64,000 nucleotides of DNA from Candidatus Dojkabacteria bacterium. GTDB taxonomy: Bacteria > Patescibacteriota > Dojkabacteria > J137. The position numbers were made by a program, and so were the translations under genes. The notes under the pieces are model-generated. The model saw nothing but the letters and a program-made list of their open reading frames with translations, made no database searches and was not told where the DNA came from. Below, piece by piece: positions 26,380-64,000 of this stretch. The stretch is from contig JAUQWV010000006.1 in the NCBI GenBank assembly GCA_030834985.1, positions 76,168 to 140,167 of the forward strand, written 5' to 3'. Positions within the stretch are counted from its first letter, which is position 1. Every line of letters starts with the position of its first letter.

Positions 26380-27690
26380 TTATTCTTTGCCGATTACTAA
26401 TATCATATCACCGGAGTAATTATATTTGTAATCGCCGAATATGATTCTAACATCATCCCGCAATATTGCTCTAACAGCCTTTATTGTATTAATAAAATTA
26501 TCTGGAGTTTTACTTGGAATGTACAATCTGTTCTCCTCTACTTTTTCAGTATAGTTTCCCGTCTTTATAACTGTGATTCCTATATTTTCAAACTTTCTTT
26601 TAAGGTTATAAGCAATTCCTGATACATTTGTTGCATTAAATATCTCTATTTGAGCCTGCTCCTTTATTATGGCAATACTAGAAAATACTTTAGATATATC
26701 TTCGTCTAATAAAATATCACTGGCAGGAATCCCTTCCTCTAAATTCGACTTAGTTAAGTCTTCCAAAGTAAGCTGTTGAGAAGCAAATCCTGTCTTTATA
26801 AATGCATTAGAACTAGCAAGATTGGCAACAAATCTTATAAATTGGTCTTTAGTAAAATCAGTACGTAAAATATCACTAAATTCTTTACCATCTAAAAAGT
26901 ATCTATAAAGTTTGTAAGTGTCCCGCAATGACTCTAAAAGCTCTTTTAAGAACATATTCTGACGCTTTAATGAGTCATCTGTAAGAATAGCTTCCTTAGC
27001 AATAAAATCATAAAGCCTACTACCGCCAATAGCCTCATCCTGAGCATAAGAATTTCCCTCGATACTATAGTTTTTATCAGCAATTACTGTAACACCTGTC
27101 TTCTCTATTAAAGTATTTAAGTCAGAATAATTAAATGCAACGTACCTATCTATTCTTATAGCGGAGATCTTTTCAATTATCGTTAATAGATCTATCATTT
27201 TTTCTTCATCTTTAGAGGTTAGAAGATTAAATACGCTTCTTAATGGGAACTTAGCACTCCCTAAATTTACTAAGTAGTTAGGATTATATGAATATAATTT
27301 AAGCTCACCTGTTTGATAATCTAAATTTACAATAGCTAACATATTTATAAAACGATAGTTATTCTTAGTGTCGTCAAAGCCAATAAATACCACGTTAATA
27401 TCTCTTGCATCACTAATAATTTGCGGGGAGTGCTCTATTCCTTCTACATCAACATAAGGAGCGACTTCAATTTGCAAATATCTGTGGATATGAAATCCAA
27501 CAATGAATATTAATAAAACAGAAAGAATAATAAGCACAGTTTTACCTTTAAAAAAGTCTCTGCCAAATGTGTTTCTACGTAGATTAATAGAAGGTCTGCT
27601 TCTACCCGATCTAAAATCTCTAATAAATTTTTTTATAGAGTTATAAAAACTTGAACGTGTAATGTTTAATGGCAATGGAGATTTATCCAT
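26380..27690 (-). CDS. LytR-CpsA-Psr (LCP)-family cell-envelope phosphotransferase-like protein
   Basis: N-terminal TM anchor. The extracytoplasmic domain has an LCP-like core (NMLAIVNLDYQTGELKLYSYNPNYLV...). Weak match by eye. Confidence 0.5.
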   Translation of the reverse strand: MDKSPLPLNITRSSFYNSIKKFIRDFRSGRSRPSINLRRNTFGRDFFKGKTVLIILSVLLIFIVGFHIHRYLQIEVAPYVDVEGIEHSPQIISDARDINVVFIGFDDTKNNYRFINMLAIVNLDYQTGELKLYSYNPNYLVNLGSAKFPLRSVFNLLTSKDEEKMIDLLTIIEKISAIRIDRYVAFNYSDLNTLIEKTGVTVIADKNYSIEGNSYAQDEAIGGSRLYDFIAKEAILTDDSLKRQNMFLKELLESLRDTYKLYRYFLDGKEFSDILRTDFTKDQFIRFVANLASSNAFIKTGFASQQLTLEDLTKSNLEEGIPASDILLDEDISKVFSSIAIIKEQAQIEIFNATNVSGIAYNLKRKFENIGITVIKTGNYTEKVEENRLYIPSKTPDNFINTIKAVRAILRDDVRIIFGDYKYNYSGDMILVIGKE

Positions 27691-49375: not shown

Positions 49376-50443
49376 ATGAAAGTTCACTCTCCATTCATAT
49401 ACCTATTACTGCTTAGTTTCTTAGAACAAAGATTAAGCATCCTACTATTATTAGCTATTAATGCGATATCCCTGTCTGTATTCAAAACAATAAGACCAAC
49501 CTTACGCTTAACTGCTCTATTTTTTATCTTTATCCTAACCAAATATATACTTGAATTAAATTTATTACAGTCGATGTTCACAACGCTAAACAGTACGTTG
49601 TCACATAGTCTTACCAGCCAAATTACTGATCTATTCGATACAAATCACGCACAATTTTTAATCGGGATTACAATAGGAGGCTCTAATGTAGATTTAAATC
49701 AAGATCTAAAAAATCTATTTAAAAAGTTTAATCTACTTCACTTAATAAGTGTATCAGGAGCAAATTTTATTTTAATTAATGAATTAACTAATCCACTAAA
49801 AAAATATCTAGGATACTATCGAATATTGATAACCAATTTAATAGTAAGCTCTTACTATATATTTGCCATAGGTTTTAGCAATCTACCGGCTTCAAGAGCG
49901 TTTTTATTTTCCAGCTATGATAATATAGCCGCGCTTTCCGGAAGACCCATTAAGTTTTTTAACAAACTGCTTTTGAGCTTATGCGTTATTTCTTATAGCA
50001 GCCCAACATTGTTATTCGAGCGATCTTTAATTCTAAGCATTGGATTCACTCTACTATACAAATCATTTGGGCTACCTAAAATAAAAACGCTCTTCGATAA
50101 CGAACTTCTAAAATTGGCTACAATTTTTATTATCTCAGCTACTATCTTCGGGAACGAAAATCCCGACTTTTTAGCCAACTTACTATTATCAGTTATCTAC
50201 CCAATTTTGTTTATAGGTACGTTTACTATATACATAACCTCTATTATCGGCGCAGAATTATTAGCAGACGTAACTTATAGAGTTATTAATATAATTCTCG
50301 ATTTCATATTTGAATATTTAGGAGCTCTTTCAAGTACCGAAAATACGTATTTACAGACGATGCTGTTCTTAGCTATTTTGGCTATCTTTGTTTATAAAAT
50401 TGTAAAAAATAAATATCGTGGATATCAGAATATTGCTCAATAA
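49376..50443 (+). CDS. comEC: ComEC/Rec2 competence-channel domain (membrane part). It may continue from a 56-aa upstream fragment in another frame (49245-49415).
   Basis: ComEC competence-domain motif FNLLHLISVSGANFILI. Polytopic membrane protein. Confidence 0.7.
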   Translation: MKVHSPFIYLLLLSFLEQRLSILLLLAINAISLSVFKTIRPTLRLTALFFIFILTKYILELNLLQSMFTTLNSTLSHSLTSQITDLFDTNHAQFLIGITIGGSNVDLNQDLKNLFKKFNLLHLISVSGANFILINELTNPLKKYLGYYRILITNLIVSSYYIFAIGFSNLPASRAFLFSSYDNIAALSGRPIKFFNKLLLSLCVISYSSPTLLFERSLILSIGFTLLYKSFGLPKIKTLFDNELLKLATIFIISATIFGNENPDFLANLLLSVIYPILFIGTFTIYITSIIGAELLADVTYRVINIILDFIFEYLGALSSTENTYLQTMLFLAILAIFVYKIVKNKYRGYQNIAQ

Positions 50444-51278
50444 TGTTGTAATTATTTTGCTTATAGCACTACTTCCGCTCGCTATTGATAAAGTAGTACT
50501 ACTATTTAATAGCGACCAGATAACGTTTCTAAATATTGGACAAGGAGATTCAATTCTTATTTGTAACCAATTCAAAAAGTGCGGTCTTATAGATACAGGC
50601 AAGCAAAATTCTGTGATTAACAAGATCAAAAAATACACCAGTCCTCCATTAGAGTTTCTTATATTAACTCATCCTGATTTAGACCATACAGGTAAAACTT
50701 TAGAGATACTTAAAGAGATAGGTGTTAGAAGAATATTCGTTAATGAAAGCTCGAAAGCGCGAGAAATTATTAAATCTATCCAACAGGTGCAAGTCCGCGC
50801 TTTCGAGCTCAAATCACATAACGATTTCATATTTGGAAACTATAAATTCGACATATTCTGGCCTCTTCCAGACACCGAGCTAGATTCTCTAGACAGCAAC
50901 GAAACATCTATTAGTATAGTTTTACACAACCAAAATCACCGCTTCTATTTAGCCGGCGATTTGGGTACAAAATTAGAAGATGAAAACCAAAAACAATATG
51001 GCTTAAATTCAATAACAGTAGCTAAATTAAGCCATCATGGTAGCAAGAACTCCTCCAGTTTATCCTTATTAAAAAGCCTTGCTCCAGATGTAGCTATCTT
51101 TTCAGTTGGAAAAAATTCCTATGGCCATCCTAATATACGGGTAATTGAAGATTTAAATATTCTAAAAATCCCATTTTTAAGAACAGATCTAGATGGAGAT
51201 ATACAAATCAAAATTAAAGAGCAAAAGCTCCAAATCGATACTGAAAAAAGCAAAAAATCATATATAATATTGAATTAA
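50418..51278 (+). CDS. comEC: ComEC C-terminal metallo-beta-lactamase-fold domain, separate ORF in +1 frame overlapping the previous one by 26 nt
   Basis: ITFLNIGQGDSILI and LILTHPDLDHTGK (HxHxDH MBL motif). SHHGSKNSS downstream. Confidence 0.7.
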   Translation: MDIRILLNNVVIILLIALLPLAIDKVVLLFNSDQITFLNIGQGDSILICNQFKKCGLIDTGKQNSVINKIKKYTSPPLEFLILTHPDLDHTGKTLEILKEIGVRRIFVNESSKAREIIKSIQQVQVRAFELKSHNDFIFGNYKFDIFWPLPDTELDSLDSNETSISIVLHNQNHRFYLAGDLGTKLEDENQKQYGLNSITVAKLSHHGSKNSSSLSLLKSLAPDVAIFSVGKNSYGHPNIRVIEDLNILKIPFLRTDLDGDIQIKIKEQKLQIDTEKSKKSYIILN

Positions 51279-54776: not shown

Positions 54777-55511
54777 ATGGATATTATTTGGAATTTGCTA
54801 CTACAAAGAGGCATGAGCCCGGTAGAAATTGATCTATACAAGGAGGTATTTATTATCTTAATAATGCTTCCTGTTGTTACTACAATTGTAGGTATCGCAA
54901 GATATGTAATAGGAACTAGAACTCTTGGCATGTTTACACCTGTGATAATAACTTTCCTGCTCTATGAGTTTGGTAGAATTGGAACCGAACAAGATATTCT
55001 TCGAGCACTTAAATATGGAATTATTTTCTTTTTAATTGTTCTAATTGCAAGTTGGCTCAGCTACAAAATATTAAAACGTGTCCGAATGAACTATATCCCT
55101 AAGCTCACATTAGTGACCATCGGTGTAATAGTCGCGTTATTCTTGTCATTTATTGTTTCGGGCATATTAGGATTTACAGGGCCAGTATTTATAAACAAGT
55201 TTACTTTGGTTATTTTAGCTATATTAGTGGAGCCGTTTGCATCAGCCTTTGCCAGAAAGAGTTTTAGCTATGGCGTCTCCTCTGCTATTGATACATTCAT
55301 ACTTTCAGCGTTTTGTTACATAATCATATCACTAACTAAGGTACAGGAATTTGCAGAGGCTAACCTACTAGTAATTCCTGTACTAATAATTGTGAATATT
55401 TATTTAGGCAGATTTACAGGCTTACGCTTAAGTGAGTATTTAAGGTTCCGAAATATATTATTTTCAGACAACAAGGCGAGTGATAATGATACAAATAAGC
55501 AAAGTAATTGA
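54777..55511 (+). CDS. seven-helix (7TM) integral membrane protein. Candidate stand-alone homologue of the 7TM module that accompanies RimK-like ATP-grasp / QEGLA-type systems.
   Basis: Seven hydrophobic ~20-aa segments in 244 aa. Polar C-terminal tail. 3' end overlaps the next gene by 32 nt. Confidence 0.5.
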   Translation: MDIIWNLLLQRGMSPVEIDLYKEVFIILIMLPVVTTIVGIARYVIGTRTLGMFTPVIITFLLYEFGRIGTEQDILRALKYGIIFFLIVLIASWLSYKILKRVRMNYIPKLTLVTIGVIVALFLSFIVSGILGFTGPVFINKFTLVILAILVEPFASAFARKSFSYGVSSAIDTFILSAFCYIIISLTKVQEFAEANLLVIPVLIIVNIYLGRFTGLRLSEYLRFRNILFSDNKASDNDTNKQSN

Positions 55512-56934
55512 AAACAGAAAATTAGTACTAGGGCGTAATGAACGATATCTAAAATACATTAGACCGCATAACTTAAGCCGTGCTACAAAAATTGCAGATG
55601 ACAAAATTCTTACAAAAAGGATTTTGAATAAAGCTGATATACCCGTCCCCAAATTAGTTAAAGTGATAAAAGATAGAAGCCAATTAAATAGCTTTGACTT
55701 TGCTTCATTACCTAAAAGTTTTGTAATAAAACCTGTTAAAGGAGTTCGTGGAGGCGGAGTGACAATCATATATAATCGTGCAAAAGACGGTAAATGGATA
55801 GGATCAAGTAATAAAAGATTCTCGGAAGAAGATTTAAGATCCTTAATACAAGATATTTTAGATGGCCGGTACTCTCTTTTTAATGAACCAGATAGAGTTT
55901 TGATAGAAGAACGAGTACGTCCGCATAAATCTTTTAAATACTATTCGTACAAAGGCGCGCCCGATGTACGGATTATTGTGTTTAATTCTATTCCAATTAT
56001 GAGTTATATACGCTTGCCTACCAAAGAATCTAACGGGCGCGCCAACTTAGATCTAGGAGCAATAGGTGCAGGTATTGATATGGCAGTTGGAAAAACAACC
56101 GGAGCTATAATTGGAAAATCTACCCCTATAGAATATGTCCCAAATACCAATTTAGCCTTATCTGGATTAAAAATTCCATATTGGGACCGAATACTAAGAT
56201 ATGCAGTTGAAGCAAGTAAATTAACAAAACTAGGTTTTGCTGCTATCGATTTTCTAATTGATGAAGATAAAGGCCCACTAATTGTAGAGTTAAATGCCCG
56301 ACCAGGATTATCCATTCAGCTGGCAAATGAAGACGGTCTACGATGGAGATTAAAAAAAGCATCTGATATACGCGTAAAAACTACTGAGCGTGCTGTTAGA
56401 CTAGCTAAAGATCTATTCGGAGGCGAAATTGAAGAAGAAATTGAAAGTATTTCAGGTAAACAAGTTATTGGCTTACTTGAAGAAGTAAAAATATTTAATT
56501 TAGATGGTGAAAGTTTTGAACAGGTAACTGCCAAGATCGATACTGGAGCTTCGTTTACCTCGTTAGATACTGAGCTAGCTATAAAGTTGGGCATGCAGGA
56601 AGTTATTGAATTTGCAAAACCGATTCTAGAATCTATCCCTAAAAACTTTGAAACAGTAGATGAGCTTAAAAAATACTCTGCTGATAACCAACTAGAAGAA
56701 CGGTTAGAGCAACATCCTCTAATTGTTGATACTGCTATAATAAAATCTAGTAATGGCTTGGATTACAGAATTATAGTACCTATGAAGTTTCAGATTTCAG
56801 GTCTTGATGTCGAATCAAATGCTACTATTGCTAATAGAACTAACCTTAATTACAAACTAATTCTTGGAGAAAAAGATCTTAAGAAATTTCTAATAGATCC
56901 TAGTAAAAAATTAATATTAAAGCTTAAAAATTAA
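55480..56934 (+). CDS. Fusion of a RimK-related ATP-grasp amidoligase (alpha-L-glutamate-ligase-related type) with a C-terminal retropepsin-like aspartic-protease domain (RimB/COG4067 type)
   Basis: N-terminus NERYLKYIRPHNLSRATKIADDKILTKRILNKADIPVP and ATP-grasp core. C-terminus VIGLLEEVKIFNLDGESFEQVTAKIDTGASFTSLD, with DTGA at nt 56539-56550. Confidence 0.65.
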   Translation: MIMIQISKVIENRKLVLGRNERYLKYIRPHNLSRATKIADDKILTKRILNKADIPVPKLVKVIKDRSQLNSFDFASLPKSFVIKPVKGVRGGGVTIIYNRAKDGKWIGSSNKRFSEEDLRSLIQDILDGRYSLFNEPDRVLIEERVRPHKSFKYYSYKGAPDVRIIVFNSIPIMSYIRLPTKESNGRANLDLGAIGAGIDMAVGKTTGAIIGKSTPIEYVPNTNLALSGLKIPYWDRILRYAVEASKLTKLGFAAIDFLIDEDKGPLIVELNARPGLSIQLANEDGLRWRLKKASDIRVKTTERAVRLAKDLFGGEIEEEIESISGKQVIGLLEEVKIFNLDGESFEQVTAKIDTGASFTSLDTELAIKLGMQEVIEFAKPILESIPKNFETVDELKKYSADNQLEERLEQHPLIVDTAIIKSSNGLDYRIIVPMKFQISGLDVESNATIANRTNLNYKLILGEKDLKKFLIDPSKKLILKLKN

Positions 56935-56936
56935 TC

Positions 56937-58436
56937 ATGGATTTTATTATACAGCAGGCTGTTGGATCTGATATTAAAGTGTTACTTGAGCTAAAAGATC
57001 AGGTTAGACTGCACACATACAAAGAATTTATCCCAGATCTTAAGTGGGAAGATATTAAGTACAACGAAACTTATGATGCAAGGGCGCAAAAGATAATAAG
57101 CCAATTTCAGGAAAAAAAAGTTTTCATCTTTTGCGCCAAAGATAATTCTCAAAATATTCTAGGCTATATAAAAATTATCCACAGAGGTTCCATAGTAGAA
57201 ATACAGGATTTATTTATTATCCCTACTGCTCAAGGAATGGGAATTGGATCACAACTTATGATTAAAGCTTGGGACTTATTTAAAGACCAGGATTCTGTAT
57301 GGCAGCTTAAAGTTAATGTACTCGAAAATAATACAAAGGCAATTGAATTCTATAAAAAACACGGCTTTGCTCCAGATATGGGCAGAATTTTCTACTATAA
57401 AATTGGAGATAATAAAAAAGCTAATACAATTAAAATGTATAAATTAAACGAGAAAACTACATCTCAGTTTTTACAATCGGCAAGGCTTATTTTAAATAAT
57501 TTTGTCGAGAACAATATTCCTATAATTGAAGTTGACCCATTATCAAATAGTTATATTGTATCTGTAAATGGCAACTATATTTACTCTCGAGGTATACTAA
57601 CACCACTCAATACTCTATCGGCATCTCATTTAGCAAATGATAAATTAACTAGCAAAAAAATCTTACAGTTTTTTAGAATTCCTACCCCTGATTATTTATG
57701 TTTTAGAAAGAAAGAAAATACAGATATAAAAGAAATTAGACTAAAGCTTGAAGAATTTTTACAAAAACATAGCAGGATTATCGCTAAACCACAAAACGGG
57801 CTTAAAAGCAAAGATGTATTTTTGAATATTCAAAATGTTAATCAGGCGCTGGAAGCTTATAATCATATTATTAATAAAGAATATAAAGGCGTTTTATTTG
57901 AAAGCTTTGCTGAAGGTGATGTTCATAGACTGCTCTTAGTTGACGGGACCCTTATAGCTGCACTAAGACGTGAAAAAGGCTACATTATTGCCGATGGTAT
58001 TAGCACACTTAATCAATTAATAACTCAAAAAAATCAGTATTTAGATCATGGAGGTAGAAATGTAGGCAGAATTAGAATTGATGAGAAATTGAATGCTGTA
58101 CTTAAAGATCAAGGATTTGATTCGTTAGAAGATGTACCTGCAAAAGATACTAAAGTATTTACAGAAATAGATTTTAGCAACCTTGAAACTGTTACAGAAG
58201 TTACTGACATTGTAAGCCCAGCATTAACACAAAAGCTATCTGGCTTAGCAAATAAGATCGGCCTTGGGCTAACAGGAATCGACGTTATCTCCACAGATAT
58301 TTCTGATGAGGGTAAATGCAGTATTATTGAAATCAATAAAGAGCCAAGCATCGATTTTCATCATTATCCCGATTACGGAGAAGCTAAAGATGTTGCAGGA
58401 GAGATTGTCAGGGCAATAATCAGGAAATACTCTTAA
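56937..58436 (+). CDS. GNAT N-acetyltransferase fused to ATP-grasp amino-acid ligase domain (architecture like Ngg, the N-acetylglutaminylglutamine synthetase)
   Basis: GNAT motif A IQDLFIIPTAQGMGIGSQLM...YKKHGF (aa 1-160). ATP-grasp core HLANDKLTSKKIL...IIAKPQNG...VLFESFAEGDVHRLLLVDG...ADGISTLNQLI...IIEINKEPS. Confidence 0.65.
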   Translation: MDFIIQQAVGSDIKVLLELKDQVRLHTYKEFIPDLKWEDIKYNETYDARAQKIISQFQEKKVFIFCAKDNSQNILGYIKIIHRGSIVEIQDLFIIPTAQGMGIGSQLMIKAWDLFKDQDSVWQLKVNVLENNTKAIEFYKKHGFAPDMGRIFYYKIGDNKKANTIKMYKLNEKTTSQFLQSARLILNNFVENNIPIIEVDPLSNSYIVSVNGNYIYSRGILTPLNTLSASHLANDKLTSKKILQFFRIPTPDYLCFRKKENTDIKEIRLKLEEFLQKHSRIIAKPQNGLKSKDVFLNIQNVNQALEAYNHIINKEYKGVLFESFAEGDVHRLLLVDGTLIAALRREKGYIIADGISTLNQLITQKNQYLDHGGRNVGRIRIDEKLNAVLKDQGFDSLEDVPAKDTKVFTEIDFSNLETVTEVTDIVSPALTQKLSGLANKIGLGLTGIDVISTDISDEGKCSIIEINKEPSIDFHHYPDYGEAKDVAGEIVRAIIRKYS

Positions 58437-59298
58437 AATATTCATCCAAATACTTTAAGACAGTAAAATCATGTCTAAATGCTGGGGCAGGATTTACTTC
58501 AAACAGATATATTTTTGAATTTTTATTAGAAACTACAACATCTACACCTGCTACTTGTAAATTTTTTACCTTTGCAGCTTTTACTGCAATTTCTGATATT
58601 TCAGGAAAGTCCTCTGGTTTTAAATACTCTACTTCTGCTCCTAAAGATACATTGTTTCTAAACTCAGCAGAATCTTTATTTCTAACTCTTTTTTTCACTA
58701 CTGCTACTTTTTCGCCGAAAACTACAAATCGATAATCAAAATCATTAGGAATCAATTCTTGAATAAAATAGTATTCATCTTTTAGCTCTTCTTTAATCTT
58801 TACATAGTCATCAAATGAATTAAGCAGATAGACACCTTTCCCTTCATTGCCTCTAGTAGCTTTTAACACTGCAGGGTAACCGCCAAGCTTTTGTATATGG
58901 GATTCTAAATTCTCATCAAGAAGTCTTTTATGAATAATAAATGTTGCAGGTAAATTCAGGCCATTCGTAATTAATAAGTAGTGTTGGTGTATTTTTGAAC
59001 CGTAATTTGAAAGTCCTACTGCACTGTCAGCAAATTTTTTTGAATGTTTGATTAAGTGTTTAGCTAAAGTGGAAGCTATATCAGGGCGTTTTTCCCACGT
59101 TCTGAAATAGATGAAATCGTAATCTAAAATATTTACACCATCAATTGTTACAGTAATAGGATCTCTAAAATCAAAGATTACATCATCCAGATAACCTATT
59201 ATATAAGTATTTCCTGTTTCCTGCCCGTACTTATTAAAGTAATCTATAAAGTCAGTATCGTAAGGCTGTCTTCCTGCTTTCAGTACAAGTATTTTCAT
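58420..59298 (-). CDS. RimK/LysX/GshB-family ATP-grasp ligase
   Basis: KIHQHYLLITNGLNLPAT, YPAVLKATRGNEGKGVYLL, YFIQELIP, DYRFVVFGEKVAVVKKR, LQVAGVDVV, LFEVNPAPAF. Confidence 0.7.
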   Translation of the reverse strand: MKILVLKAGRQPYDTDFIDYFNKYGQETGNTYIIGYLDDVIFDFRDPITVTIDGVNILDYDFIYFRTWEKRPDIASTLAKHLIKHSKKFADSAVGLSNYGSKIHQHYLLITNGLNLPATFIIHKRLLDENLESHIQKLGGYPAVLKATRGNEGKGVYLLNSFDDYVKIKEELKDEYYFIQELIPNDFDYRFVVFGEKVAVVKKRVRNKDSAEFRNNVSLGAEVEYLKPEDFPEISEIAVKAAKVKNLQVAGVDVVVSNKNSKIYLFEVNPAPAFRHDFTVLKYLDEYFKSIS

Positions 59299-59323: not shown

Positions 59324-61432
59324 ATGAATTATATTACAAAAGGTATGAGCTTAGAAGCTATAAATCCTCAAGAAAGAAGCCCTGAATTAATTCCAATAGA
59401 AAGAGCTCAGCTAGAAATAATCCAACTTGGTGAAAATATAGCTAAAGAAATAAAGAATCTGAAAGAAGCTTCTAAAGTAATGATCATAATCACTGCCATA
59501 TTTAATAATAACCTTGATTTCTCTAATCCTGAATTAGTAAGCTTAGAAATTGATAATGTAAGAAAATCTCTATTAGAAATATGCGACAATGCCGAAATTC
59601 CTGAGCCGGAAGCGATCTTGCAGCTAAAAGAAATCATACAAAGTTTTGATTTTGGATCTCCTTTAGATTTAAAAGAACTTATATCTAAGATTGACAAGCT
59701 GTTGTTAGAAGTCATTAAAAATGAATCTATTCCCTTAACAGCAAAGAGCAAATTCTTCCAGAAAATTAAAGGTATTTGTGAAGTAAATCATCAAAATAGT
59801 GTTGCCAATAAAATTCAAATGACTGAATCAACAATATCATTATCTCAAGATATGCCGCTTCCAGTTAATGTTAGCTATATTTTAAATCCCGAGATGATTT
59901 CAGAAAGAGATGCTGCGCTAAGACGATTAAAGAATAGTATACAGACTCAGGAATCACTACTATTTCAATACTCTGCAAGTGAATACATTGAAAAGATCCA
60001 TGGAACTGATCTAATTGATGCTGAAGAGGAGTATTACAGACAGTCAGAGTTTTATAACTCTAATAAACCAGAGCTAGTAGAAAATACAGTCCCTAAAAAC
60101 AAAAAGGAAGGCTACCCTCTTGAACTCATAGTGATTCTTAAAGGCGGGCCTAAAGAAGTTACTTTTCGCCAACTGAATATGGCTAAAATACAATTATTAA
60201 GAATCTATCGTGAATTTATTAATACCTTAATAACTACAGAAATCATTGATAATAGAATTATTGAAGAACAATTATCAGAACTTGAAAATTCTTTACGAAT
60301 AGGAATAGATGAAACCTCAGAAGCTGAAATTAAAAGACGAAAGCAAACCAGACGAATCTCATTATTTGACATGCTACATATGGGTACCGTTGCAGCAAAT
60401 AAAGTTAACCCAAATATGACTTCAGAAAATCAAGTTCCACTATCGCAAGAAGTTTTAGATTATACGGGAGGAACAAAGCCAGCAAATACTTCTAGAGAGC
60501 TTTTTATAAGTAAATTAACCAAAGAGCAAAGAAGAAGGTTTGAAGTGTTAGAGTCTTTAAAAGACTATCAGTTTGATGAGACTCAAGATGGAATTCCAAG
60601 TCGGATTTATAGAAGATTCATAGAAAAACTTGGAATAGCTACCCCACTTGAAGATGTAGATGAACAATTGGAATTATCTGAAAAGAAAATACCTAACAAT
60701 AAATTTAAAACATACACTATTAAAGTTAGACCTGGTGGCACAGTAGCGGTCGACCATGGGTTTAGAACAATTTTAATTCCCAGAACTTGGAAACCTAAAT
60801 TATCAAGTATTTTAATATCTATCCAACATGAGATTGGCCACGTTGCACAACAATTATCACGAGATCAGAGCTTTCTGCCTGGTGTTAATATTTTAAGCGG
60901 ACTTGGCAGATCAGGCACATTAGCCGAAGCTGGAGCAATAAAATCTGAAGCCTTAATGGCAGAACTTCTAATTAAAGAACGCGAAATTAATACTTATCAT
61001 GTAAGTATTGTAAAAGGAATTATTGAAGGAAAAAACTATTGGGAACTAGTTGAAATGGTATTAAAGACTCTTTTTGAAAGGAATATTAGAAATAATGAAA
61101 ATAAATCAAAAGAAGAGCTAGCCAGAACTGCTATTAAAACTGTCAATAGAGCCTACTCCTCTTTAGGCGCAATGGGAAACAAGACAGATCCACATGGACG
61201 ATATCCGACCTATGCTGGATTTCTATCATATACTTACCAAGGCTTGCCAGAGTTTAGCCAGCAGCCATTTTATATAAGTGGTATTCCTGCACACAGAATA
61301 GATCTCCAAGAGTTTATGCCACAACCTCAAATTGAAGGTGTCCCAATTACAGAAGAACTAATAGCAGAAATTATAATAGATGCAGCCTACGAAGTCTTAG
61401 CAGAAAATGGGATTATAAATACAGCTAATTAA
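59324..61432 (+). CDS. 702-aa protein with C-terminal HExxH zincin-like metallopeptidase domain (possibly DUF1704/MATCAP/QEGLA-family-like); N-terminal ~480 aa unassigned
   Basis: ISIQHEIGHVAQ (HEIGH at nt 60827-60841). Candidate third ligand in KSEALMAE ~40 aa downstream (nt 60941-60964). Confidence 0.5.
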   Translation: MNYITKGMSLEAINPQERSPELIPIERAQLEIIQLGENIAKEIKNLKEASKVMIIITAIFNNNLDFSNPELVSLEIDNVRKSLLEICDNAEIPEPEAILQLKEIIQSFDFGSPLDLKELISKIDKLLLEVIKNESIPLTAKSKFFQKIKGICEVNHQNSVANKIQMTESTISLSQDMPLPVNVSYILNPEMISERDAALRRLKNSIQTQESLLFQYSASEYIEKIHGTDLIDAEEEYYRQSEFYNSNKPELVENTVPKNKKEGYPLELIVILKGGPKEVTFRQLNMAKIQLLRIYREFINTLITTEIIDNRIIEEQLSELENSLRIGIDETSEAEIKRRKQTRRISLFDMLHMGTVAANKVNPNMTSENQVPLSQEVLDYTGGTKPANTSRELFISKLTKEQRRRFEVLESLKDYQFDETQDGIPSRIYRRFIEKLGIATPLEDVDEQLELSEKKIPNNKFKTYTIKVRPGGTVAVDHGFRTILIPRTWKPKLSSILISIQHEIGHVAQQLSRDQSFLPGVNILSGLGRSGTLAEAGAIKSEALMAELLIKEREINTYHVSIVKGIIEGKNYWELVEMVLKTLFERNIRNNENKSKEELARTAIKTVNRAYSSLGAMGNKTDPHGRYPTYAGFLSYTYQGLPEFSQQPFYISGIPAHRIDLQEFMPQPQIEGVPITEELIAEIIIDAAYEVLAENGIINTAN

Positions 61433-62444
61433 TTCTAATGCTTCTTTTGTAAGCGCCTAAGTTTTTTATAGCTATTTCTAATCCTCTAGCTACACAAGTT
61501 AAAGGATCCTCCGCTACATATGTAGGAATTCCTATAGCTTTTGTTAGGAACTCATCGATACCTTTTAACATTGCAGTCCCGCCACTTAGAACCATACCAT
61601 TATCTATAATGTCGCTCATTAACTCTGGAGGTGTTTTTGCTAAAACTTTTTTTACCGAGTTAGCTATATTATCTAAAACTTCTCTGGTTGGTTCTACAAA
61701 CTCACCTGAGCCTATCTTAATAATATCTGGCTGCCCTGTTTTTGAGTTCTTTCCTTTGATCTCAATTTCAATAGGATTTTTAACCGGCATAGCTGAAGCA
61801 TATTTTATTTTTAGCTCCTCAGCTGTGACTTCACCAACAATAAGATTATGTTTCCGTTTTAAATAGTTAATAATTGCCTCGTTAATTACATCTCCTGCAC
61901 CTCTGTAAGATTCATATGCTACTACCCCATTTAACGATAAAACAGCTACTTCGGCAGTGCCGCCGCCGAGATTAACGATTAAGTTTCCAGTTGATTGATT
62001 AATTGGAAGCCCGGCACCGATGGCGGCGGCTACAGGCTCCGGTAAAATATATATTTTTCCGGCACCTACTGATGAAAGCGCCTGCGTTAGAGCACGCTCT
62101 TCTACCGAAGTTAATCCTGCAGGCGCTGCTACCATAACCTCAGGCTTTGCTAAAACAACGCCACCCAATACTTTCTTAAAAAACCTCTTTAGCAAAGCCT
62201 CTGCCAGCCTATAATTTGAAATTCCTCCATTCTTAAGCGGTCTTTTAGACTCTACTCCTTCTGGAACTTTGCCAAGCATTAATTTAGCATCTTCTCCTAT
62301 AGCTAAAACTTTCTTTTCTTTGGGAGAAATAGCAACTACTGTAGGTTCTTGTAAAACCACTCCCTTACCTTCGACTATCATCACACAATTTGCTGTACCA
62401 AAGTCGATTGCAATCTTCTGCGGAGTAAATAATTTGTTAATCAT
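61425..62444 (-). CDS. second MreB-family actin homologue (paralogue)
   Basis: IAIDFGTANCVMIV, NLGGGTAEVAV, LSGGTAMLKG. 339 aa. Convergent with the previous gene and overlapping it by 8 nt. Confidence 0.8.
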   Translation of the reverse strand: MINKLFTPQKIAIDFGTANCVMIVEGKGVVLQEPTVVAISPKEKKVLAIGEDAKLMLGKVPEGVESKRPLKNGGISNYRLAEALLKRFFKKVLGGVVLAKPEVMVAAPAGLTSVEERALTQALSSVGAGKIYILPEPVAAAIGAGLPINQSTGNLIVNLGGGTAEVAVLSLNGVVAYESYRGAGDVINEAIINYLKRKHNLIVGEVTAEELKIKYASAMPVKNPIEIEIKGKNSKTGQPDIIKIGSGEFVEPTREVLDNIANSVKKVLAKTPPELMSDIIDNGMVLSGGTAMLKGIDEFLTKAIGIPTYVAEDPLTCVARGLEIAIKNLGAYKRSIRIN

Positions 62445-63125: not shown

Positions 63126-64000
63126 TTAAGACTCAACTAATTCAAGTAATTTTATATTCTTAACTATATTAAATAAACTTTCTAAAAGTTCAGATGGCTC
63201 GCCTACTTTAAAATGTTCACTATCTGTATGTCTGCCGCCCCTCTCTGGAAAGCTTACGATTACAGTATTTCTTTCCTTAGATGGTAAATGAAGTCCTAAA
63301 CTGCATTGAAATGAGTTAGCTAAAGCATAAAGATCCTTATCTTTGCCTTTTAGTGCTGTTGTCAAAGAATTATCATCTTCAATCAACTCTGCTTCACCAT
63401 AAGAGCTTTCAACTGCATCTAATATTGTAGATTTTATTTCTGGATCTACCTGTGAATAGTAATGATCTGCATTGTCAGGTTTAACTGAATACAAAAGACT
63501 GTCTTCTTCAATGATTCCTAATTCTCTACATAATGCTGCAAAAGTACCATATAAATCCCGAAGCTTATAATCTGATAAATTGCCCGGAGTAAAAGCCATA
63601 TAAATATTTCCATCATCAAAATATGCGTTTATAGTTAACCTAGCAAAATATGGTATTTCTTTAAAATAAGAGCTTAAAAACCTCTGAATTTCAGCGGAGG
63701 TATAGCCCTGTCTTTTTACATTTTTAAAAAGTATTGTTTTACTTTGCATAATTTCATTCACAACACCTCCGCGTAAAGTGCCTGTTGGTTCAAGACTTAT
63801 GGCCGCCGGTATGCTTATTCGTTTATAAAACTTCTTCTGACCGGGATTTGCAAGTTCTTCATCTGTTGAAATAGTCACTACCGGCGGCCCAACATTAGCC
63901 CTATAAAGTCTATAAAGCAATACAATAATTACTGCTACCTGAGTAAGCATGTCATTTGCTCCCCTGCCAAAAATATATTCGTTATTTTCACTATCTATTT
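63126..64000 (-). CDS. hypothetical protein, partial (frame open to the window edge; N-terminus lies outside the window)
   Basis: No minus-strand stop between 63951 and 64000. No motif recognised. Confidence 0.4.
   Translation of the reverse strand, partial: IDSENNEYIFGRGANDMLTQVAVIIVLLYRLYRANVGPPVVTISTDEELANPGQKKFYKRISIPAAISLEPTGTLRGGVVNEIMQSKTILFKNVKRQGYTSAEIQRFLSSYFKEIPYFARLTINAYFDDGNIYMAFTPGNLSDYKLRDLYGTFAALCRELGIIEEDSLLYSVKPDNADHYYSQVDPEIKSTILDAVESSYGEAELIEDDNSLTTALKGKDKDLYALANSFQCSLGLHLPSKERNTVIVSFPERGGRHTDSEHFKVGEPSELLESLFNIVKNIKLLELVES

Follow-up and report, generated by a model that had tools for sequence, protein, structure and literature searches.

What does a 702-residue protein with a lone HExxH motif do beside a cluster of ATP-grasp ligase genes in a Candidatus Dojkabacteria chromosome? 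A first-pass annotation of the 64-kb stretch of DNA that carries the gene (hereafter the window) had proposed a gluzincin related to MATCAP and to the bacterial DUF1704 (QEGLA motif) proteins, which would act opposite to neighboring ligases. MATCAP/TMCP enzymes are gluzincin metallocarboxypeptidases with a degenerate HExxxH motif and a third metal ligand in an EEG motif (PMC10499314, PMC13522474), and they trim acidic tubulin tails (PMC10499314). In Pseudomonas, RpsF is polyglutamylated by RimK, RimB and RloA cleave polyglutamate of at least 8 Glu, and a genetic coupling links rloB and rloC to these two proteases (PMC12239564).

Here, we combined family searches, profile comparison, structure prediction, and gene-neighborhood analysis for this locus. 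On sequence evidence, the 702-aa protein is a member of a rare, uncurated, Pfam-orphan HExxH family, and neither this peptidase family, nor its N-terminal domain, nor the composition of the surrounding module is described in the sources searched. The general kind of system (an ATP-grasp ligase with a peptidase) is already known; what is new is the variant within MATCAP-like gluzincins and the variant Rlo/Rim module.

The open reading frame and its putative metal site

The gene (59324..61432, + strand) is an ATG-initiated open reading frame of 702 codons. Its start may have been called seven codons too early, since the relative P0003 begins at the equivalent of M8. The features of the protein discussed below are as follows.

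59324..60643, + strand: N-terminal region, mostly alpha-helical (residues ~1-440), from conserved columns and predicted secondary structure with pLDDT mostly above 85
60686..61429, + strand: predicted C-terminal MATCAP-like gluzincin catalytic domain (residues ~455-702), with strands at 464-469, 475-477, and 482-486, an active-site helix at 493-514, and a Glu helix at 531-548
60827..60841, + strand: HEIGH (H502, E503, H506), with the two His as predicted metal ligands and E503 as predicted catalytic residue, from conservation
60923..60937, + strand: AEAGA (residues 534-538) with E535 as predicted third metal ligand, 29 residues past H506, aligned to the Glu of the DUF1704 QEGLA and MATCAP EEG motifs
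61148..61243, + strand: R609...Y636-x-x-Q639-G640 segment, in which R609 and Y636 are invariant

HEIGH (residues 502-506) is the sole HExxH in the protein, where 0.012 would be expected by chance from the protein's own composition, and the first-pass description of it as the only recognizable catalytic motif stands. No transmembrane segment was predicted (the top 19-residue Kyte-Doolittle mean was 1.21), and no signal-peptide-like N-terminus was seen when the sequence was read by eye. A secreted or membrane-protein reading was rejected for want of a transmembrane segment.

A rare family that keeps its HExxH

Among 5.8 billion protein clusters, a word-indexed search returned 4 clusters at 90% identity (100, 64, 58, and 39% identical to the 702-aa protein), and two profile re-searches of the same database recovered nothing beyond these 4 proteins. 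When 1.84 billion representatives (clustered at 50% identity) were searched exhaustively by HMM, 22 proteins were recovered, 15 of them at E <= 1e-30. A first genome scan for family members gave no match; two GTDB genomes that encode relatives (27-34% identity) are Candidatus Saccharibacteria metagenome-assembled genomes.

The family alignment comprised 20 sequences at 16-64% identity to the 702-aa protein. Across it, E503, H506, A538, G569, R609, and Y636 are invariant, and at least 90% of the sequences retain H502, Q509, R529, E535, G537, Q639, and G653. H502 is present in 19 of the 20, the exception being P0014 (GEFAH), a 355-aa fragment-like sequence. Thus, with E503 and H506 invariant and H502 lost solely in P0014, HEIGH is not a chance match, and the chance reading, which the first-pass annotation had named as its own possible undoing, was rejected given both the low expectation and the retention of the motif in relatives.

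Curated models place the family outside DUF1704. Pfam PF08014 (MATCAP, formerly DUF1704; gathering score 27 bits) had no match at E <= 1 in the 702-aa protein or its 20 relatives, and NCBIfam TIGR02421 (QEGLA motif protein) was not listed at E <= 1 for the 20 members, so by the standard of these models, none of them is a DUF1704 protein. PF08014 did perform on a positive control, a protein encoded next to the family gene in the 39%-identical relative (locus L001), at 74.7 bits. Other matches were slight: the M3 oligoendopeptidase F model TIGR02290 showed a weak local likeness over the HExxH and Glu helices (15 bits, E 0.0079, residues 492-611), and M48 matches appeared in two family members (best E 0.044 in HMM searches of the 20 relatives). 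Neither the single protein nor the 20-sequence profile gave a meaningful match in searches of PDB sequences.

Predicted fold

AlphaFold2 run on only 4 sequences produced a poor model (pLDDT 48.7), and on the 20-sequence alignment a model with pLDDT 86.5 and pTM 0.82. In the latter, the C-terminal domain has the layout of the gluzincin clan MA(E), with a three-stranded sheet, the HEIGH helix, and a following helix that begins near the conserved E535, and thus agrees with the class first suggested for the protein. The model also shows the catalytic-domain fold of MATCAP/DUF1704. From this arrangement of secondary structure, H502, H506, and E535 would be expected to cluster.

Foldseek with the full-length model against the PDB returned no match at E <= 0.001, and MATCAP was not among the matches listed; the top match was an M32 carboxypeptidase (E 8.8e-3). 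The M32 carboxypeptidase Taq family and DUF885, both gluzincin carboxypeptidase-like, all-helical, two-lobe enzymes, are among the closest known systems. Viral structures searched with Foldseek gave no match.

A distant relationship to MATCAP and DUF1704

The positive-control protein of L001 is the 366-aa product of a gene divergent from the family gene, in the place of a RimK ligase (PF08014 E 8.6e-21), and it matches the human MATCAP chain 7z5g_A at E 1.1e-5; a metagenome scan with it recovered only itself. DUF1704 alignments of 4-7 sequences were assembled from this protein, plasmid-borne proteins annotated as 'QEGLA motif' (from Pseudoalteromonas, Sinorhizobium, Vibrio, and Rhizobium), and a MATCAP fragment. 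With hhalign, the family aligned to the DUF1704 profile at 77% probability (E 2e-5, 154 columns; 4-7 sequences in the profiles), and the C-terminal domain only aligned to seven DUF1704 sequences at 74.6% (E 2.7e-5, 160 columns). The real alignment scored 46.2 (46-51 across runs), compared with 17.5 for a reversed-sequence control and 16.8 for the best of 30 column shuffles. When a 4-sequence family profile was set against the single L001 MATCAP sequence, the result was insignificant (0.67%).

The aligned region begins at the strand that precedes the metal site and ends near residue 658; it pairs HEI-GH with HEIxxH, i.e., HExxH onto the HExxxH of the DUF1704 family, and AEAGAIKSE with QEGLAIxxE. 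E535 falls on the QEGLA Glu, and E542, the first Glu of SEALMAE (residues 541-547, 35-41 residues past H506), on a second invariant DUF1704 Glu; between AEAGA and (Q/E)EG(L/F)A, the Glu is aligned and the next Gly is offset by one position. In MATCAP/DUF1704, the (Q/E)EG(L/F)A motif provides the third metal ligand some 30 residues past the second His. The third metal ligand is thus most likely E535, as judged from this alignment, and the earlier assignment of that role to SEALMAE gives way to AEAGA.

Single-model searches with HMMER filters off point the same way: the family C-terminal HMM found the bona fide PF08014 protein of L001 at 22.6 bits, and the 7-sequence DUF1704 HMM matched P0025, a member of the family, with 22.5 bits across 160 positions. 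The P0025 alignment covers HExxH, EaGA, R..kGGG against RvyRGGG, sKDlvYL against tKDaiYL, and GgvSlq against GkiSlq. This bridge lines up R609 and Y636 of the 702-aa protein with the Arg of RvyRGGG and the Tyr of KDxxYLxG, both DUF1704 motifs.

There are also clear differences. MATCAP/TMCP1 (KIAA0895L) and bacterial DUF1704 proteins have HExxxH, whereas 19 of the 20 family members have the four-residue HExxH spacing and P0024 alone (HEIEGH) has the spacing typical of MATCAP. The subfamily found in the window has altered QEG and KD motifs, and the family carries ~440 extra N-terminal residues unrelated to DUF1704 N-termini. Moreover, since L001 has a genuine PF08014 gene beside the family gene, the family is a lineage apart from DUF1704 rather than the DUF1704 partner itself, and the occurrence of both genes side by side in one relative suggests that their roles may differ.

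The proposal of MATCAP/DUF1704 likeness therefore held in part: direct HMMs were negative for all 20 members and the spacing and lineage differ, whereas the profile-profile similarity stood well above its controls, and an absence of any profile or structural similarity, which would have spoken against the proposal, was not what was found. We still place the family as a probable distant relative of MATCAP/DUF1704, outside DUF1704 as curated models define it.

The N-terminal helical region

Residues 1-480 had no match in Pfam, NCBIfam, or PDB sequences, which bears out the earlier impression of novelty for this part of the protein. Structural matches of the N-terminal 440 residues were generic helical bundles only, and a greedy hhalign of the region against DUF1704 N-termini gave no confident alignment. 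It contains conserved motifs of its own, i.e., LPxNxSYILNP...R...L..LK (180-203), AKxQLLRIYRExxN (287-300), and LRxG...RR..F...H.G (324-354), with many conserved Arg and Lys, and the strongly conserved motifs are largely basic. Such motifs would suit an acidic substrate, and the region is probably a substrate-selecting lobe.

A variant Rlo/Rim-like gene neighborhood

The genes flanking the 702-aa gene are as follows.

54777..55511, + strand: RloB-like 7TM protein without a transglutaminase domain, 244 aa (PF14402 E 2.3e-17, profile positions 53-247 only; RloB model NF052267 positions 312-506 of 508)
55480..56934, + strand: RloC-like ATP-grasp (TIGR02291-like) with a C-terminal RimB/RloA-like retropepsin (PF14397 E 1.3e-60; PF05618 36.8 bits, cut-off 27; TIGR02291 258.6 bits, cut-off 314.2)
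56937..58436, + strand: GNAT acetyltransferase fused to a cyanophycin-synthetase-like ATP-grasp, 499 aa (PF00583 E 8.6e-14; TIGR02068 E 6.2e-46 and TIGR03103 E 1.4e-34, both below cut-offs)
58420..59298, - strand: RimK-family ATP-grasp ligase, 292 aa (PF08443 E 6.3e-20; TIGR00768 98.8 bits, cut-off 143.4)
61425..62444, - strand: mreB, its 3' end overlapping the 3' end of the 702-aa gene by 8 bp

The three + strand genes follow directly after rplJ-rplL, upstream of the 702-aa gene, and the RimK-family gene is divergent from the 702-aa gene, with start codons 25 bp apart. The wider window is ordinary chromosome (gyrB/gyrA, topA, dnaB, a PBP gene, pilus ATPases, and secE-nusG-rplKAJL), with a G+C content of about 33%. 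A promoter and terminator scan found sites no commoner than in shuffled sequence.

ATP-grasp, retropepsin, and 7TM RloB are encoded together within 54777-59298, as in the RloABC and RimK-RimB modules of Pseudomonas, and the neighbors match RloB (7TM part), RloC, RimB/RloA (DTG retropepsin), and RimK. The described Rim and Rlo systems are without a metallopeptidase (PMC12239564), whereas the module here adds the 702-aa HExxH protein. It further differs in that its retropepsin (residues ~325-480 of the RloC-like fusion, with DTG) is fused to a ligase and has no signal peptide, its 7TM protein has no transglutaminase domain, two further ATP-grasp ligases are present, and the host is not a proteobacterium.

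This neighborhood recurs. Relatives at 64, 58, 39, 37, and 28% identity share the gene order 7TM, RloC-retropepsin, cassette, family gene, mreB, and the cassette takes one of two forms: either the GNAT-ATP-grasp (or a GSH-synthetase-like ATP-grasp) plus RimK, or a family-2 glycosyltransferase with two unknown proteins, to which a true MATCAP gene may be added (cassette B). Part of this synteny may be inherited gene order rather than selection, as it comes mostly from one lineage. The association with ATP-grasp ligases, already remarked on in the first-pass annotation, is also seen at an unrelated, independent locus, where the gene for P0015 (25% identity) precedes one for a free-standing retropepsin of RimB type (PF05618, E 7.4e-5) and two for RimK-like ATP-grasp proteins. 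No ATP-grasp gene was found near the distant members P0011 and P0023.

Proposed function and alternatives

To the following reading, we give slightly better than an even chance: the 702-aa protein is a cytoplasmic MATCAP-like metal-dependent carboxypeptidase, the trimming or erasing component of a Rlo/Rim-like module, acting on the products of the adjacent ligases. The C-terminal 250 residues would be a divergent relative of the MATCAP/DUF1704 carboxypeptidase domain, with the metal held by H502 and H506 of HEIGH and E535 of AEAGA, and E503 as general base. Because the nearest characterized relatives are carboxypeptidases that trim acidic tails, the protein is probably an exopeptidase, and as it adjoins amino-acid-adding ligases, it probably removes what they add. 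In this scheme, a protein C-terminus or a peptide would receive amino acids (most likely alpha-linked Glu) from the RimK/RloC-type ATP-grasp ligases, long acidic tails would be cleaved internally by the fused retropepsin of RimB type, and the metallopeptidase would then take off the remaining C-terminal residues singly, complementing the endo-acting retropepsin.

With the same fold and chemistry, the substrate could instead be a small free peptide made by the GNAT-ATP-grasp and RimK-like ligases, such as free poly-Glu or an N-acetylated di- or oligopeptide like NAGGN or NAAG, and the enzyme would serve turnover of that pool rather than editing of protein tails. The GNAT-ATP-grasp protein resembles N-acetylglutaminylglutamine synthetase (TIGR03103) and the ATP-grasp part of cyanophycin synthetase, but its TIGR03103 score of 119.6 is far under the cut-off of 569, and cassette-B relatives that have no GNAT-ATP-grasp gene still keep the family gene. 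The rlo operon has a link to osmotic stress and may yield free polyglutamate (PMC12239564), and the large helical lobes together with the M32/DUF885/M3 similarity fit enzymes that accept only short peptides; MATCAP itself, on the other hand, acts on protein tails. On balance, we consider a free-peptide substrate unlikely.

The protein could also be a general-purpose oligopeptidase or carboxypeptidase of M3/M32-like housekeeping peptide turnover, the ligase adjacency reflecting inherited gene order only, which we regard as improbable. RimB binds and regulates RimK, and by this model the 702-aa protein could bind the ligases as a regulator or scaffold without catalytic activity, its metal site being a relic. 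Bacterial DUF1704 proteins are indeed annotated as 'flavohemoglobin expression-modulating' rather than as enzymes, P0014 has no first His, and the N-terminal helical region is large; yet even very divergent members share E503 and H506 without exception, and H502 and E535 with few exceptions, a pattern that marks a working active site and makes a regulator highly improbable. Both of these readings are less likely than a MATCAP-like peptidase acting on ligase products.

Taken further, the MATCAP-like carboxypeptidase could belong to a system, encoded right after the L10-L7/L12 genes, that reversibly tags C-termini with amino acids in a polyglutamate-like manner, with three ATP-grasp 'writers', two 'erasers' (the endo retropepsin and the exo MATCAP-like metallopeptidase), and a ribosomal or cytoskeletal (MreB-adjacent) protein as target, the family being a prokaryotic sister lineage of the tubulin-tail trimmers. 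This extended picture is speculative, and we think it rather unlikely in full. If it were true, the writer/eraser logic of the tubulin code would predate tubulin. The bacterial tyrosination/detyrosination-like cycle suggested at the outset is likewise an inference. MATCAP/TMCP enzymes were recognized as tubulin-code erasers only in 2022-2023, and we know of no demonstrated activity for their bacterial DUF1704 relatives. To our knowledge, RpsF and SdeA are the only bacterial targets of C-terminal glutamylation so far. The family keeps the catalytic core of these enzymes, yet its HExxH is standard and its large helical domain is new, and its pairing with adjacent ligases provides a candidate ligase/peptidase pair for the study of bacterial C-terminal glutamylation.

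Gene neighborhood of the 702-aa protein and its relatives

One ORF of the window fuses a GNAT acetyltransferase with an ATP-grasp domain, and its likeness to TIGR03103 (N-acetylglutaminylglutamine synthetase; E 1.4e-34, far under the cut-off) hints that the fusion may produce an N-acetylated peptide.

56937-58436, fused ORF, GNAT acetyltransferase and cyanophycin-synthetase-like ATP-grasp domain

In some relatives, the cassette of GNAT-ATP-grasp and RimK is exchanged for two proteins without Pfam assignment (about 260 and 266-273 aa) placed around a family-2 glycosyltransferase. At the locus of the 39%-identical relative (L001), the place taken by RimK in the window is filled by a genuine PF08014 MATCAP gene, which is encoded on the opposite strand.

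L001 6479-9905, swapped cassette (orphan proteins and family-2 glycosyltransferase)
L023 747-3103, swapped cassette
L009 607-1428, swapped cassette

A further case of DUF1704 paired with ATP-grasp was observed on Sinorhizobium meliloti pSymA (L013), where the DUF1704 gene has an N-formylglutamate amidohydrolase gene on one side and a glutathione-synthase-like ATP-grasp gene on the other.

L013 1818-5619, QEGLA-motif (DUF1704) protein, 628 aa, with flanking genes

Long DUF1704 forms of about 630-660 aa with N-terminal extensions exist, and these extensions were not aligned by hhalign with the N-terminal region of the window protein.

Metal-motif variants among family members

In the 20-sequence alignment A2, all members with an intact motif carry HExxH other than P0024, whose HEIEGH has the HExxxH spacing found in MATCAP. 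P0014 (355 aa) reads GEFAH, with the first His missing; it could be a copy that has lost activity, or else a fragment.

Other ORFs of the window

Directly after rplJ-rplL, the window carries a variant Rlo module (54777-56934), in which the RloB-like protein is the 7TM part alone (244 aa, without the transglutaminase domain), a RimB/RloA-like retropepsin domain (DTG present, no signal peptide) is fused to the RloC-like ATP-grasp, and the RloB-like and RloC-like ORFs overlap by 32 nt. Downstream of rplL, no ORF of rpoB/rpoC size was found within the window.

Four further features were recorded.

26380-27690, -, 436-aa ORF in an otherwise housekeeping region
49376-51278, +, ComEC-like pair, two overlapping ORFs of 355 and 286 aa
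62450-63121, NDK ORF, 223 aa as listed versus 198-201 aa in relatives
63126-63950, -, 274-aa ORF after ndk

Pfam gave nothing at E <= 1e-5 for the 436-aa ORF. The two ComEC-like ORFs appear to be parts of a divided ComEC, one the membrane portion and the other a portion with the metallo-beta-lactamase fold and an HPDLDH motif; the L001 equivalent has a weak Lactamase_B match. Translation of NDK probably begins at a Met further downstream, since the Pfam match begins inside the protein rather than at its N-terminus. The 274-aa ORF had no Pfam match (best E 0.11); the position after ndk is held in relatives L001 and L004 by a LysM/M23 peptidase gene.
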